Notes: a model not told the origin generated them from the sequence alone. Shown: positions 14,356 through 59,277, counted from the stretch's first letter. The stretch is DNA of 64,000 bases from a virus (IMGVR_UViG_3300042876_000282:1-64000), one strand, 5' to 3'. Numbers and translations: made by a program.

Positions 14356-14374
14356 GTGTCTCCGACGAAGACAC
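14356..14374. repeat. 19-bp palindrome, copy 1
   Basis: GTGTCTCCGACGAAGACAC, intergenic. Confidence 0.9.
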
Positions 14375-14421
14375 GCGACGCCGGCTAGGCGCGAGCACGC
14401 GCGCGGGCTAAGATCCCGACC

Positions 14422-14763
14422 ATGCCCCCGCGCCGGTTCTCCCGATACACGTTCTCGACCGCGGTCGCCGATGACGCCGGCGACCTCGTGCTCCACGGCG
14501 GCGACCCGTTCCGGTACCGCAAGTTCGCCGACAACGTCGAGCACGTCGTTCGCGAGGGCGATACGTTGTGGACGCTCGCGGCTCGCTACTTCCGCGGCAT
14601 CGATCGCCCCGCGGGCTTGTGGTGGGTCATCGCGGACTTCCAGCCCGAACCGATCCACGATCCGACGCTCGCGCTCGACGTCGGATCAGTGGTCGTGATC
14701 CCGTCGCTTCGTACAGTGCTCGAAGAGGTGTTCTCGGAGAAGCGTCGAGCGGTGTCGGGATGA
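14422..14763 (+). CDS. LysM-domain baseplate protein
   Basis: HVVREGDTLWTLAARYF...WWVIADF. Confidence 0.85.
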   Translation: MPPRRFSRYTFSTAVADDAGDLVLHGGDPFRYRKFADNVEHVVREGDTLWTLAARYFRGIDRPAGLWWVIADFQPEPIHDPTLALDVGSVVVIPSLRTVLEEVFSEKRRAVSG

Positions 14764-16118
14764 CGACCGCCGATCGTTCGTCTCCGATCTTCTACGTCGC
14801 GGTCGTACCGGATGGCGACGGCGGTGAAGTCGTACGCGTCGATAACTTCGCGGACCGCGTGCTCTCGTTCAAGTATGAAGACGAAGAGCAGAAGGCCGAT
14901 CGCGTCACGCTCACGCTCGACAACTTCGATCTCGCGCTCTACGACGATCCCGCGTTCAAGCACGGTATGCTTCTCGACGTGTCGTGGGGGTATCCCGGTC
15001 GCATGGCGCCGACGCGCCGATGCGTGGTGCAGTCGATCAAGGGTGGTAAGTCGGTCACGGTGACGGCGGTCGCGCAATCGATCTTGATGAACAAGACGAT
15101 CCGCGCGCGCACGTTCTCGAACTCGCGGTACTCCGACGTCGCGCGCACGCTCGCACGAGAAGCCGGGTTCGGTGACGACGCGATCGACGTCGAAGAGACG
15201 CCGGTCGTGCACGAGACGATCACGCAGGCTCGGCTCTCCGATGCCCAACTACTGCGACGGCTCGCGGACAAGGAAGGGTTCGAATACTACGTCGACCACG
15301 AGGGATTCCATTTCCACCGTCGACGAGTCGACCAAGCTCCGACGCGGACGTTCGTCTACTACATCGATCGCGAAGGCGGCGACGTTCTCGACTTCTCTCT
15401 CGACGACGACATAACGAAGCCGAAGGCGCGGCACCGTCGACGCGGGCGCGACCTCACGGAGCGAACCGAGATCGACGAAGAGGCATCGAACGAGACCGAC
15501 ACGAACCGCGCGACGCTCGCGCCGATCGCGGCGCTCCCGTCTCCGCGGACGCCGGCGGCTTCGCCGACCGCGTCTTCGCCGGAGGTCTTCGTGACGTTCG
15601 ATCGAGACACGTCCGCGCCGTCTCTCTCGGGTCGAGCGAGTGCCGACGAACGTGTGGCGTCGGAAGAGACCGCGCCGACCTCCGCGCAGGATGCGACGAC
15701 GGCGAATCGCGAAGCCGTGGGGCAGAACCGACGCACGCGGCAGGCGGCGATCAAGCTCAAGCTCGACGTCGTCGGAGATCCGTACGTGCTCGCGAAGACC
15801 GTGATCGCGGTCGAGGGGCTCGGCTCGCGTCTCTCGGGGCGCTACTACGTCAAGCGCGTAGTCTCGACGCTCGGGAACGATGGAACATACAAGGTCGCGC
15901 TCGAAGTGATCTCCGACGGTCACGGTGGGCACGCTCGACGTTCGCGCGTTGCGAGCGACCTCGAACTTCCCGCGCGCGAGGAAGCGAACACGGGCGCGCA
16001 GAACACCGCGCCGCCGGCCGATCCCGACGCGCTCGAACCCGTGGTCGTGTTCGACCGCGACACGTCCGCGCCGGTGACGACGTTTCGCCCGCGCACGCAA
16101 CGCAGGGGGGGAACGTGA
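14760..16118 (+). CDS. Baseplate hub (late control D/GPD family)
   Basis: LTLDN, TQARLSDAQLLRRLA..EGF, GRYYVKRV motifs; ATGA overlap. Confidence 0.85.
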   Translation: MTTADRSSPIFYVAVVPDGDGGEVVRVDNFADRVLSFKYEDEEQKADRVTLTLDNFDLALYDDPAFKHGMLLDVSWGYPGRMAPTRRCVVQSIKGGKSVTVTAVAQSILMNKTIRARTFSNSRYSDVARTLAREAGFGDDAIDVEETPVVHETITQARLSDAQLLRRLADKEGFEYYVDHEGFHFHRRRVDQAPTRTFVYYIDREGGDVLDFSLDDDITKPKARHRRRGRDLTERTEIDEEASNETDTNRATLAPIAALPSPRTPAASPTASSPEVFVTFDRDTSAPSLSGRASADERVASEETAPTSAQDATTANREAVGQNRRTRQAAIKLKLDVVGDPYVLAKTVIAVEGLGSRLSGRYYVKRVVSTLGNDGTYKVALEVISDGHGGHARRSRVASDLELPAREEANTGAQNTAPPADPDALEPVVVFDRDTSAPVTTFRPRTQRRGGT

Positions 16119-57091: not shown

Positions 57092-57561
57092 AGCGAAGTG
57101 CGTTCCTATCGAACGACGGGGTCTACCGCTACGAACTCACGCGGACGTGGGGCGAGGGCGATCGGCTTCTCTGGGTCATGCTGAACCCGAGCACGGCGGA
57201 CGCCGACCTCGACGACCCCACGATCCGACGCGTGATCGGGTTCTCGCGAGCGTGGGGGTTCAGCGGTGCGATCGTCGCGAACCTCTTCGCGTTGCGCTCC
57301 ACCGATCCGAAGGTGCTTCGCACGCATCCCGATCCGGTGGGGCCGGCGAACAACGGGATGCTCGCGCAGCTAGCGCTACGCGCGCCGTTCGCGGTGTGCG
57401 CGTGGGGTGCTCACGGATGGCTTCACAATCGCGATCGCGAAGTGCTCGCGTTGCTCGAATCCGCGCGGTGTCTTCCGCGGTGTCTCGGTCGAACGTCGTC
57501 GGGTGCGCCGAAGCATCCGCTCTACCTCGCGGCTTCGACGCCGCTTGAACCCATGCGGTGA
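57088..57561 (+). CDS. DUF1643-family protein
   Basis: YRYELTRTW, MLNPSTAD...DDPTIRR, NLFALRSTDP, AWG, PKHPLY. Confidence 0.9.
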   Translation: MKRSAFLSNDGVYRYELTRTWGEGDRLLWVMLNPSTADADLDDPTIRRVIGFSRAWGFSGAIVANLFALRSTDPKVLRTHPDPVGPANNGMLAQLALRAPFAVCAWGAHGWLHNRDREVLALLESARCLPRCLGRTSSGAPKHPLYLAASTPLEPMR

Positions 57562-57565
57562 AGCG

Positions 57566-58303
57566 ATGAAGCCTGGATCGATCGTCATGGTCTCGCGCGG
57601 TGGCAGCGCAACCTTGGGCAAGGGTCGCGCGCGCAAGGTGCGCGGCGTGCTCGTCGAGTCGCACGAGACCGAGCACTCGGTCCGATTGCTCGAAGACGAT
57701 CCGGACTCGACCGTCGCGGGATGGTCGAAGGCCGGTGACGTCGGTCGGTGGTCGACGTGCGCGATCGAGGCGGTGCAGTTCCGCACGACGATGATCGATC
57801 CGCCATGGCTCGAACGTGGCAGCGGGCAGATCAAGCGCGGAGCCGACAAGCACTACCCCTTGCTCACGACGCCGAAGATCATCGACACGATCCGCGAGTG
57901 TCCGATCTTCAACCCCGCTCCCGATTCGCACCTCTACCTCTGGACCACGAACACGTTCCTCGTCGACGCGCTGCGAGTCGTCGACGCGCTCGGGTTCCGC
58001 TACGTGACGAACGTCGTATGGACGAAGCGCCACATCGGGATCGGGCGCTACTTCCGAGGGCAGCACGAGATCTTGCTCTTCGCCGTGCGCGGTCGCGGCA
58101 TGGCCGAGGACTTGATCACGGAGTCGAAGAACATCCCGAGCGTGATCAATGCCGACCACGTTCGACGCGATGGCAAGCGCGTTCACTCCGCGAAACCGCC
58201 GGAGAGCTACGCGCTGATCGAGTCGCGCTCGCGCGGACCGTACGCTGAGATCTTCGCGCGCTCGCACCGTGCGGGCTGGGAGTCATGGGGGAACGAAGTA
58301 TGA
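57566..58303 (+). CDS. MT-A70-family N6-adenine methyltransferase
   Basis: DPPW, HLYLWTTN, GIGRYFRGQHE, HSAKP, EIFAR, WGNE. Confidence 0.92.
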   Translation: MKPGSIVMVSRGGSATLGKGRARKVRGVLVESHETEHSVRLLEDDPDSTVAGWSKAGDVGRWSTCAIEAVQFRTTMIDPPWLERGSGQIKRGADKHYPLLTTPKIIDTIRECPIFNPAPDSHLYLWTTNTFLVDALRVVDALGFRYVTNVVWTKRHIGIGRYFRGQHEILLFAVRGRGMAEDLITESKNIPSVINADHVRRDGKRVHSAKPPESYALIESRSRGPYAEIFARSHRAGWESWGNEV

Positions 58304-59277
58304 TGGTGCTCGTTTGCAAGCCGCTGGGAACCAAGCTCACGCGCTCCGCGTGCGGTACTCGACACGAAGCCGCCGCGCGTGCCGGAGAGCGAAGGCAACT
58401 CGGGAACACGAAGGTCGCGTGCTCGACGTGCGCGACATGTCCAGTCGGGCGCGCGCATCATGCCGGCGACCGGCCGGAACACTGGCCCGATGGATCGCCG
58501 ATCGAGGTCGTAGAGATCGAAGCCGCGTCGACCGAGCGGATCGGACCTCCGCGCCCGACTCCGGCGAAGCCGCGGTCTCGCTTCGAGCGTGCGTCGTTCG
58601 ACTCGCCGACGAAGACGCCGCCGGTTCCGCCGGCAGAGATCGCGGCGCGTGCTCGCGCGGTGCTGGCGGAGCGCGCGAAGATCAAGCCGGTGACGCGTAC
58701 GAAGATCGAGCCGGTGCCCGATGCGGTGCAGGCTGAACCCGAGCGTGTCTCCGACGAAGACACGCAGGTCGAGCAACCCTCGACGAGACCCGCGCGGCGG
58801 ATCGTGCGCGTGGTCGACGCCGGAGAGATCAAGGTCGAGCCAGCGCGCGGTCGACTCGTCGAGATCGAGGGTGTCTCGCGCACGATCCCGGAATGGGCGA
58901 AGGTCGCGGGGATCCACCCGAACGCGGTCTACGAACGGATCCGCCGAAACTGGCCGCTCACGCTCGCGTGCACGGCTCCGCGTGGTGCTACCTACGAACA
59001 CGCGATCGCGGTCGCGAAGCCGAAGCGAGAGCGGCTCGGAAGCTCGCCGATCGAGAAGCTCCCCGAGGTCGACGCCGATGCGCCGGCGACCGAGTCGGCG
59101 CACGAACCCGAGCCCGAGATCGAGAAGAGCGAACGAGGTGCAGTCGTCGACGCGCTCTCGAAGCTCTTCGGCGCGGTGCTCTCGCCGCGTGCGGTTCTCG
59201 AAGCCGCGGGCTTCGAGGTCGTGTCGTCGGGGCTCGTGCATACGGGGACGATGCTGATCGTTCGGAGGCGGTCGTGA
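58300..59277 (+). CDS. Zinc-binding plus HTH protein, paralogue A
   Basis: RSAC...CSTCATC.VG.AH..WPDGSPI; TIPEWA...GI....V..RI..NW. Confidence 0.7.
   Translation: MMVLVCKPLGTKLTRSACGTRHEAAARAGERRQLGNTKVACSTCATCPVGRAHHAGDRPEHWPDGSPIEVVEIEAASTERIGPPRPTPAKPRSRFERASFDSPTKTPPVPPAEIAARARAVLAERAKIKPVTRTKIEPVPDAVQAEPERVSDEDTQVEQPSTRPARRIVRVVDAGEIKVEPARGRLVEIEGVSRTIPEWAKVAGIHPNAVYERIRRNWPLTLACTAPRGATYEHAIAVAKPKRERLGSSPIEKLPEVDADAPATESAHEPEPEIEKSERGAVVDALSKLFGAVLSPRAVLEAAGFEVVSSGLVHTGTMLIVRRRS
58745..58763. repeat. 19-bp palindrome, copy 6
   Basis: GTGTCTCCGACGAAGACAC, in CDS. Confidence 0.9.

Follow-up and report, generated by a model that had tools for sequence, protein, structure and literature searches.

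A private palindrome and the gene block that accompanies it

We found a near-palindromic 19-bp word at 17 places in the genome record of an uncultured soil phage, IMGVR_UViG_3300042876_000282 (G000:C1 in IMG/VR; 87,237 bp, 81% complete according to CheckV). The stretch of DNA analyzed, called the window here, is the first 64,000 bases of this record. The copies are very likely protein-binding DNA sites, and they may well be docking sites, placed at the boundaries of gene blocks, for the product of the gene at 38978-40219, which would probably act there on transcription. The word is private to this phage, and its matches elsewhere are single chance ones. Related phages have swapped the word for another one, often at the same gene junctions, and owning any such word goes with owning one particular gene block. 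The feature can thus be traced through a clade whose phages differ in the word and partly share its positions. The presence of palindromes narrows to a block of three genes, encoding a helicase, a sigma factor and a zinc-ribbon/helix-turn-helix (HTH) protein, so that the question is open to direct testing even without a cultured phage.

The pattern GTGTCTYCGNCGRAGACAC matches the window exactly at six places, which are those reported in a first-pass annotation of this DNA, and none of 100 dinucleotide-shuffled sequences contains any match. No further copy appears in the window when up to three mismatches are allowed. The whole G000 record holds 17 copies with two mismatches or fewer, and a reversed control word has none. 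The copies start at 14356, 21401, 30305, 39470, 48404 and 58745 in the window, and at 66302, 67240, 68739, 69866, 69925, 70065, 70260, 70986, 78485, 81290 and 83732 past it. An 18th, exact copy is found at 7140-7158 of the IMG/VR contig L007 (8,399 bp), about 1.1 kb past the right end of G000; bases 8270-8399 of this contig overlap G000 87108-87237 (130 bases, 99.2% identity), adding about 8.3 kb to the record. The copies in the window are as follows.

Copy 1, 14356..14374: form A, GTGTCTCCGACGAAGACAC; intergenic, 9 nt past a stop codon (gene end 14346) and 47 nt before the start at 14422
Copy 2, 21401..21419: form B, the reverse complement of form A; 6 nt past TAGCGT, then GGAGG and ATG
Copy 3, 30305..30323: perfect 9-1-9 variant; in the open reading frame (ORF) 30236-30931, 636 nt upstream of the ResIII helicase gene
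Copy 4, 39470..39488: form B; in a linker of the candidate reader gene for which five orthologues show gaps or no conservation
Copy 5, 48404..48422: form A; in ORF 48113-48862, in an unconserved stretch ahead of a conserved C-terminal domain
Copy 6, 58745..58763: form A; in ORF 58300-59277, in a frame that differs from that of the other in-gene copies (VSDEDT)
Partial copy, 460..473: 14 of the 19 letters of form B, the left arm missing

The first-pass description of the window copies as five that are identical when strand is allowed for, one perfect palindrome (the copy at 30305) and one half-site at 460-473 proved accurate. Throughout G000, 14 of the 17 copies are one identical 19-mer in either orientation, asymmetric letters included. 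On the plus strand, which carries nearly all genes, nine copies read as form A, five as form B and three are variants. The site is a near-palindrome that joins a half-site with C at position 7 to a half-site with T around a central A/T. Such hetero-sites, with two different halves, make up 15 of the 17 copies (binomial P about 0.001 by hand count if the halves were free to combine), the exceptions being the copies at 30305, with two C halves, and 68739, with two T halves. GC...GC in the flanks often prolongs the symmetry of the site.

Occurrence of the word in other sequences

Among the 2.9 million contigs of IMG/VR, three besides G000 contain the word, each in a single copy; they include L007, which continues the record. 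The JGI metagenomes gave 62 stretches, 60 with one site and two with two sites of other variants. None of the 62 shares DNA with the phage at a blastn E value of 1e-10, and the best tblastx score is at most 45 bits. A collection of 185,579 species, with one genome each, gave 68 stretches from unrelated phyla with a single site each. These single scattered matches indicate that the collections, from which records very close to that of the window may be missing, contain neither a host chromosome rich in the word nor a close relative sharing it.

The sites could in principle belong to a host protein (a global regulator, a nucleoid protein or a defence sensor) that the phage exploits or decoys. 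Each phage having its own word could mirror different hosts, and the phage-encoded reader is itself a candidate. However, no stretch from the 185,579 species representatives has more than one copy, the 68 matches are spread across unrelated phyla, and the presence of palindromes tracks a phage gene block; we therefore consider a host protein highly improbable. The suggestion in the first-pass annotation that a host ParB might be the binder did not hold up either, since enrichment of the word is seen in none of the bacterial genomes and a search of five of the phage genomes detected no canonical ParB N-domain.

The two metagenomic contigs with two sites, L111 (positions 510 and 617) and L122 (685 and 727), are short and unrelated, with 50% and 73% G+C. 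Both have nearby copies of GTGTCTCCG-N-CGGAGACAC-type palindromes among further GTCTCCGAC repeats, and these palindromes may be operators of other elements.

Relatives have their own palindromes

Homologues of the large terminase (TerL) in public proteins are 88%, 70% and 54% identical or lower. An alignment of TerL led to 28 IMG/VR loci, while a scan of IMG/VR with the single TerL protein matched nothing. We compared thirteen whole relative records (G001-G013). Nine related myovirus records of 65-115 kb each possess their own palindrome of 16-20 bp in 5-21 copies. The words in the relatives are as follows.

G001 (113.6 kb, complete): GTGTTCACCCGGGTGAACAC, 21 places (14 exact)
G002 (109.5 kb, terminal repeats): TTGTAACCTCGAGGTTACAA, 14 places (10 exact)
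G007 (89 kb): TTG[G/T]AAACCCGGGTTT[C/A]CAA, 21 copies
G013 (107 kb): TTGTCGCCCCGGGGCGACAA, 12 copies
G005: AGTCTCCCCGGGGAGACT, 5-6 copies
G006 and G009: GTGTGGCCCCGGGGCCACA, 6 and 9 copies
G010: the word of G002, 6 copies

In G003, G004, G008, G011 and G012, no palindrome with at least three copies was found.

Several gene junctions carry sites in more than one phage. The junction between the putative small terminase gene and the TerL gene has sites in G001, G002, G006, G007 and G009. Sites stand ahead of the ResIII helicase gene in G001, G002, G005, G007, G009 and G013, as well as in G000, where the distance is 636 nt, and just after the PolB gene in G001, G005, G006, G009 and G013. The start of the tail gene at 21401-22135 and that of its orthologue have a site in both G000 and G001 (site 104878).

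We also noticed a second kind of repeat in G007 (L062-L066), where GTCCGATAATC precedes 13 genes between 43431 and 85650, in the early/replication half. It is an extended -10-like word, often with a TTGAAA-like -35 ahead of it, and forms a promoter set separate from the palindromes of G007.

Gene content associated with the palindromes

We compared all G000 proteins with the thirteen records by tblastn, and all G001 proteins with the others. A homologue of the gene at 38978-40219, one of several candidate binders listed in the first-pass annotation, exists in all nine palindrome-bearing records and in none of the five palindrome-free relatives, and it is the sole gene with this distribution. 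Starting from G001, four genes are present in at least four of five palindrome genomes and absent from all five palindrome-free ones: the candidate gene (8 of 8), the sigma gene, the helicase gene and one small ORF, which G007 lacks. The block in G000 consists of the following genes.

36338..38308, plus strand: UvrD/Rep-type helicase (Pfam UvrD-helicase, E 4e-56), the first gene of the three-gene block
38399..38974, plus strand: phage sigma factor of 191 aa (Pfam PF04542, Sigma70 region 2 only; E 8e-6, 26 bits against a cut-off of 24)
38978..40219, plus strand: candidate reader of 413 aa, directly downstream of the sigma gene

The UvrD and sigma genes show the same presence pattern wherever a record covers that part of the contig. 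The sigma gene directly precedes the candidate gene in G001, G002, G005, G007, G009 and G013, and the two genes adjoin in every record that covers the region. G008 is complete, has no palindrome and is without the UvrD-sigma-candidate block, and it shares with G000 the tail genes and the ResIII, DnaB, primase, PolB, RecA-like and SbcC/D-like genes. The distant G012 (TerL 28% identical) has an unrelated sigma factor, no candidate gene and no palindrome. When we searched IMG/VR for the candidate gene, one alignment led to six known loci and another added one more, G013.

The reader is probably encoded in this helicase-sigma-candidate block. That it is the 38978-40219 product itself is about evenly balanced. 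Two other genes were considered as the reader and rejected. The putative small terminase gene (68780-69487, minus strand) has homologues in the palindrome-free G003 and G004, and the gene at 81408-82052 is absent from the complete G001.

The candidate reader protein

In an alignment of six orthologues, the protein has a zinc ribbon (CxxC...CPFCGD) at its N terminus, after which come a linker that varies in length and composition and a conserved, HTH-like core (...ELPIARSTCYRLIEVV...), followed in turn by a basic linker and a conserved beta-rich C-terminal domain. At E<=1e-3 the family has 3306 cluster representatives, and at E<=1e-30 it has 76. Among 42 family members, Pfam detects zinc ribbons, a weak DUF3102 (two members; best E 0.0057), one AT-hook and one SAP domain. 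PHROGs returns only families of unknown function for the candidate, and a sequence search of solved structures with the family alignments returns the zinc ribbon only. The ESM Atlas model is poor (pLDDT 0.54); its look-alikes include ParB_N/HTH_ParB clusters at TM 0.41-0.47 and one DUF3102 (PF11300) cluster at TM 0.34. The C-terminal domain of the candidate found no match by tblastn in 50,697 phage records.

The ParB N-domain (PF02195) does not reach its cut-off in any of the five genomes searched (G000, G001, G002, G007 and G008). The best match in G000, at a sub-threshold 13.6 bits, falls in a methyltransferase gene (82185-82313). This N6/N4 DNA methyltransferase gene (G000:C1:82089-83534; L006:12089-13534) thus has a weakly ParB-N-like N-terminus. 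Its region is flanked by the sites at 81290 and 83732, and sites of relatives also lie near the orthologue.

The putative recognition helix reads RSTCYR in G000 and RSTAYQ in G005, whose palindromes contain GTCTCC, and RQTAYQ in G013, whose palindrome contains GTCGCC. This is the only hint of a specificity pairing, and it is anecdotal; over the rest of the domain, the nearest protein to that of G000 is that of G001, whose core is TGTTCACC. We infer the identity of the reader from the phyletic pattern and the composition of the protein, not from a demonstrated specificity.

Two homologues that are 72-73% identical to the candidate, P0122 and P0123, lack VSSSET and have SVSPAGDT in the same linker. 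A related palindrome, longer by one base at its centre, could encode SVSPAGDT.

Location of the sites relative to genes

By our own crude, GC3-based gene calling, 9 of the 17 G000 sites are fully intergenic, compared with 10.5% expected (P 1.7e-5), three further sites being in small ORFs of doubtful status or at a wrongly called start. In G001, 11 of 21 sites are intergenic, compared with 4.7% expected (P 6e-10), and six of these 11 lie no more than 8 nt past a stop codon. The enrichment suits a function at gene boundaries; yet a long exact word is also hard to fit into genes. Typically, as at 14356, 67240, 68739 and 78485, a G000 site follows a stop codon by 6-23 nt, and the next start is 23-100 nt further on. 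The copy at 21401 does begin 6 nt after TAGCGT, as the first-pass annotation had noted, and the mRNA would therefore open with these 19 letters.

The four in-gene copies of the window are all within the replication module. They encode VSPPET, VSSSET, VSPTKT and VSDEDT, the peptides previously read from them. Their reported position in linker-like parts of the proteins was borne out by orthologue alignment for two of the four, as the copies in 38978-40219 and 48113-48862 fall in unconserved stretches.

The constraint acts on double-stranded DNA. Selection at the DNA level had been proposed in the first-pass annotation, and it agrees with the presence of both orientations on the transcribed strand, where the corresponding RNA hairpins are about 10 kcal/mol apart in stability. 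The RNA folds of the two orientations have energies of -12.5 and -22 kcal/mol and different loops, and by count the sense strand of plus-strand genes has seven copies of the weaker-fold form and three of the stronger-fold form. No T-run follows the sites in their flanks, none of the six terminator-like predictions in 13000-32000 is on a site, and no Rfam family matched in the window. With both orientations on the sense strand, no T-run and no Rfam match, a single RNA-level function is unlikely.

RNA hairpins at transcript ends could otherwise act as factor-independent terminators, as processing sites or as 5'/3' stabilisers. Many sites follow a stop codon by 1-9 nt, others lie about 6-7 nt after a -10-like hexamer and would be the 5' end of an mRNA (G000 21401 and G001 104878), and the stems would be stable at the energies given above. 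However, a hairpin does not need exact loop letters, the two orientations on the sense strand of G000 would give different loops, and in-gene copies would truncate essential messages. Together with the missing T-runs, terminators and Rfam matches, this makes a hairpin function very unlikely.

TAnnnT hexamers stand 6-8 nt before ATG codons, such as TAAGAT before 14422 and TACGCT before the TerL gene (14400-14424; G000:C1:78535-78551). This hexamer-to-ATG distance suggests leaderless mRNAs, and the same pattern is seen in G001. In a search for an early-promoter cassette, most repeats in 36000-64000 proved to be low-complexity coding sequence. A non-coding stretch of about 2 kb (G000:C1:69487-71750; L005:9487-11750), which sits upstream of the putative small terminase gene, contains five copies of the palindrome and many short repeats of GTGCTCGG / GCTCGACGTGCTCG. 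It may serve as an origin or a regulatory region, or in packaging.

Spacing of the sites

In the first-pass annotation, the sites were described as an evenly spaced ladder across all modules. The gaps in the window (7045-10341 bp) are as given there, and they are even, with a coefficient of variation (CV) of 0.12 that is reached by 0.04% of 200,000 random placements (P 4e-4) in a test chosen post hoc, after the pattern had been seen. The ladder is absent from the genome at large. Gaps in the whole G000 record range from 59 to 10,341 bp and are not regular (CV 0.88, P 0.45), and eight copies crowd within 4.7 kb, between 66,302 and 71,004. This clustering past the window indicates that the ladder belongs to the tail and replication modules and does not extend to the whole genome. 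Of eight relatives, G001 (P 0.011) and G007 (P 0.0035) have sites more evenly spaced than by chance and six do not; the Fisher combination over the eight gives P 0.007.

An architectural or segregational array, the reading favoured in the first-pass annotation, would place a bound protein at roughly regular intervals along the chromosome to compact, loop, partition, protect, package or eject it, on the model of ParB/parS, KorB/OB or Noc/SlmA sites, and would not serve to control particular promoters. The evenness in the window and in G001 and G007, with the combined P value of the relatives, speaks for such an array, as does the irrelevance of orientation; in-gene linker copies far from starts would fit a need for a site near a given position. 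Nevertheless, we regard this explanation, the main rival of the model given below, as unlikely. The window test was post hoc, the whole record is irregular and crowds eight sites within 4.7 kb, and six of the eight relatives are no more regular than chance. Moreover, the ParB N-domain was not found in G001, G002, G007 and G008 and reaches only 13.6 bits in G000, and homology of the candidate to the ParB HTH is unsupported.

A 9.7-kb block bounded by two sites

Plus-strand genes occupy G000 from 1 to 68.7 kb and resume at 78.5 kb. The sole minus-strand block, from 68,780 to about 78,391, is located exactly between the sites at 68,739 and 78,485. The block G000:C1:68739-78503 (L005:8739-18503) resembles a 9.7-kb inversion that has moved the putative small terminase gene away from the TerL gene (78549-80048). 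The small terminase is putative because it is assigned by position only, Pfam and PHROGs being silent. The homologue of 68780-69487 (minus strand) lies directly upstream of the TerL gene, on the same strand, in all eight relatives for which both genes were located (G001-G007 and G009). With the block flipped back, G000 would show the arrangement of G001, where the putative small terminase gene is followed by a site and then by the TerL gene. The left junction is spanned by Logan contigs from two runs (2407 bp, without differences), the right one by those from a single run (791 bp). The opposite-orientation joint is not seen among the listed Logan contigs; both runs are possibly the source sample, and contigs drop rare variants. 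The site-bounded inversion shows that such words can shape the rearrangement of phage genomes.

Recombination or mobile repeats (REP-like elements or hot spots), spread by copying and mainly shaping rearrangement, would be in line with this inversion, whose junctions are bridged as described, and with the identity of 14 of the 17 copies down to the asymmetric letters. Recombination between copies of a 17-bp repeat is described for Cluster O mycobacteriophages (PMC4351075). We consider this explanation quite unlikely all the same. The Y1 (REP-associated) transposase (PF01797) is found in none of the five genomes searched, an integrase is present in only two of five and not in the complete G001, and the alternative orientation is not seen in contigs, with the reservation on rare variants made above. 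Furthermore, the shared junctions carry a different word in each phage, which fits a co-evolving reader and not a spreading element.

A model for reader and sites

A sequence-specific, probably dimeric reader encoded by the phage is the most economical explanation of the sites, in agreement with the dimeric binding protein proposed in the first-pass annotation. In our model, a phage-made zinc-ribbon/HTH protein would bind each 19-bp site as a dimer, the C-terminal domain of the candidate probably pairing two chains. Most intergenic sites would lie a few bases past a stop codon or at a predicted transcript start, where the bound protein may serve as an operator or roadblock whose effect does not depend on orientation, blocking or insulating transcription whichever way it runs. 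The one-directional genome would in this way be cut into transcription units that are timed together with the phage sigma factor. In the long replication operons without intergenic gaps, the word may have been written into tolerant protein linkers, and the even spacing in the window would be mainly a by-product of the size of gene blocks. That transcription is the output of the system we propose tentatively, at somewhat less than even odds.

Several points weigh against this model. Pfam matches no family in the window's own 38978-40219 protein. Against six bacterial ParB proteins, hhalign gives 2.4% and 1.4% probability, with the putative recognition helices in register; with these values and no N-domain at cut-off, ParB homology is unsupported, so we do not file the protein under ParB. 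Over 28 pairs from eight phages, helix identity follows half-site similarity no more closely (Spearman coefficient 0.27, P 0.17) than the remainder of the domain does (0.43). The phyletic pattern cannot separate the candidate from the adjoining sigma and helicase genes, and its weight rests on G008 and G012, because three of the five palindrome-free records are incomplete (48-74%). The excess of hetero-sites (15 of 17) is not needed by a symmetric dimer. The distance from site to start varies from about 14 to more than 200 nt, so there is no fixed promoter geometry, and classical operators leave in-gene sites far from any start unexplained. Finally, the even spacing of G001 and G007 leaves room for a physical role.

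A broader version, which we offer as a long shot, is that a clade of soil myoviruses of about 90-115 kb has a self-contained, genome-wide control layer, in which the sites would be loading or anchoring points and the reader would act at a distance. Its parts would be a private 19-20-bp palindrome, a zinc-ribbon/HTH reader without the ParB CTPase domain and the adjoining sigma factor, and its targets would be many -10-only, leaderless promoters. By analogy, it would be akin to the 'mobile enhancer' formed by the T4 sliding clamp or to KorB, built from unrelated parts. Such a layer would account for the irrelevance of orientation, for the copies inside genes and for spacing that is regular in part.

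If the pairing of reader and word is true, these phages offer a set of naturally orthogonal protein-DNA pairs, and a handle on how large lytic-type phages partition and time the transcription of one-directional genomes.

Comparison with known dispersed sites

The C1 operators of P1, the SopB sites of N15 and the conserved inverted repeats of phiC31 are each bound by one phage protein at about 4-20 scattered sites, and they serve lysogeny or the maintenance of a plasmid prophage. In contrast, the palindromes described here occur with or without an integrase, and their candidate reader gene stands next to a sigma factor gene in the replication module. A tyrosine integrase (Phage_integrase) is present in G002 and G009 and absent from G000 (81% complete), G001 (complete) and G007. 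Since palindromes occur with and without it, the feature is not tied to lysogeny, unlike stoperators or immunity-repressor networks.

Another similarity concerns the activators Ogr of P2 and Delta of P4, whose site consensus is TGT-N12-ACA. The words of G001, G002, G006/G009, G007 and G013 fit TGT-N12-ACA, that of G000 fits TGT-N11-ACA, and the phages are myoviruses with P2-type baseplate genes. However, the Ogr_Delta zinc-finger activator (PF04606) is encoded in none of the five genomes searched, and the sites have no fixed distance to a promoter.

The dispersed palindromic sites typical of ParB and KorB are present here (17 in 87 kb, and 5-21 in relatives), whereas the N-terminal CTPase domain PF02195 is absent at cut-off from all five genomes. 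KorB of plasmid RK2, as presented in PMC11790492, is a ParB-family CTPase clamp that binds palindromic operators (OB) across a 60-kb replicon, so that one protein regulates promoters at a distance. Its layout of HTH, linker and C-terminal pairing domain resembles the layout of the candidate as deduced from sequence.

The stoperators of Cluster A mycobacteriophages, according to PMC9283540, are many copies of one word found genome-wide, often in short intergenic gaps, and are bound by a phage protein that stops both elongation and initiation of transcription. Stoperators are asymmetric and bound by the monomeric immunity repressor of temperate phages, whereas the G000 sites are near-palindromes. 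Their orientation follows transcription, and that of the G000 sites does not (nine A, five B and three variants on the plus strand). The temperate life style of the stoperator phages also sets them apart from G000 and G001, in which no integrase was found. We regard both KorB/OB and the stoperators as analogues in function.

The closest published description is that of the 17-bp repeat TGTTCGGNNNCCGAACA of Cluster O mycobacteriophages (Corndog and its relatives), reported in PMC4351075 to have 34 invariant copies between and inside genes. The repeat has an asymmetric centre and no orientation bias, is absent from the host genome, and has given rise to rearrangements by recombination between copies; the authors proposed a dimeric binding protein and left the function open (PMC4351075). 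Like the G000 word, it is a private inverted repeat with outer TGT...ACA, of the same 17-bp span as the G000 core (PMC4351075). G000 fits this type of description (private, near-invariant, intergenic and in-gene, absent from host genomes), which is a descriptive class and not homology. The Cluster O phages differ in being siphoviruses of Mycobacterium, an unrelated type, with a repeat density about four times that of G000, and the account of the repeat in PMC4351075 singles out no reader gene, whereas here a three-gene block tracks the repeats. Private palindromes dispersed over phage genomes have been in the literature at least since that paper, with neither a reader nor a function assigned.

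A small literature search found no published sigma-linked zinc-ribbon/HTH reader with dispersed palindromes. New here are the clade-wide turnover of the word and a sigma-linked reader candidate without the ParB N-domain.

Other features of the phage

Pfam identifies a myovirus tail in G000, with a tape measure (11133), a gpD-like hub (14859), baseplate J (19000) and a P2-I-like protein (22241). A replication and recombination module encodes a ResIII helicase (30959), DnaB (33151), a primase (34907), UvrD (36338), PolB (40450), a RecA-like protein (45298), an Mre11-like phosphoesterase (47125), an SbcC-like protein (49348) and a dCTP-deaminase-like protein (55674). No tRNA gene was found in the window.

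DNA of the phage is present in two rhizosphere metagenome runs, and a third run has distant look-alikes only; the listed runs include no RNA data for it. A megablast search of 12 kb against cultured phages found no near-identical relative, and PolB and TerL are only 20-28% identical to proteins of cultured phages. The best PolB matches are haloarchaeal viruses, but a haloarchaeal host was rejected because the proteome, with a median pI of 6.05, is not acidic.

Direct repeats of 125 nt at 61227-61351 and 63466-63590 (92% identity, 2239 bp apart) bracket a small gene module. The TerL homologues P0001, P0084 and P0111 are 830-850 aa long and contain a LAGLIDADG (PF14528) domain, and the TerL of G013 (G013:C1:53660-56221) matches in two pieces within one open frame of 956 aa. 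These long or split sequences suggest that the terminase of this clade contains inteins.

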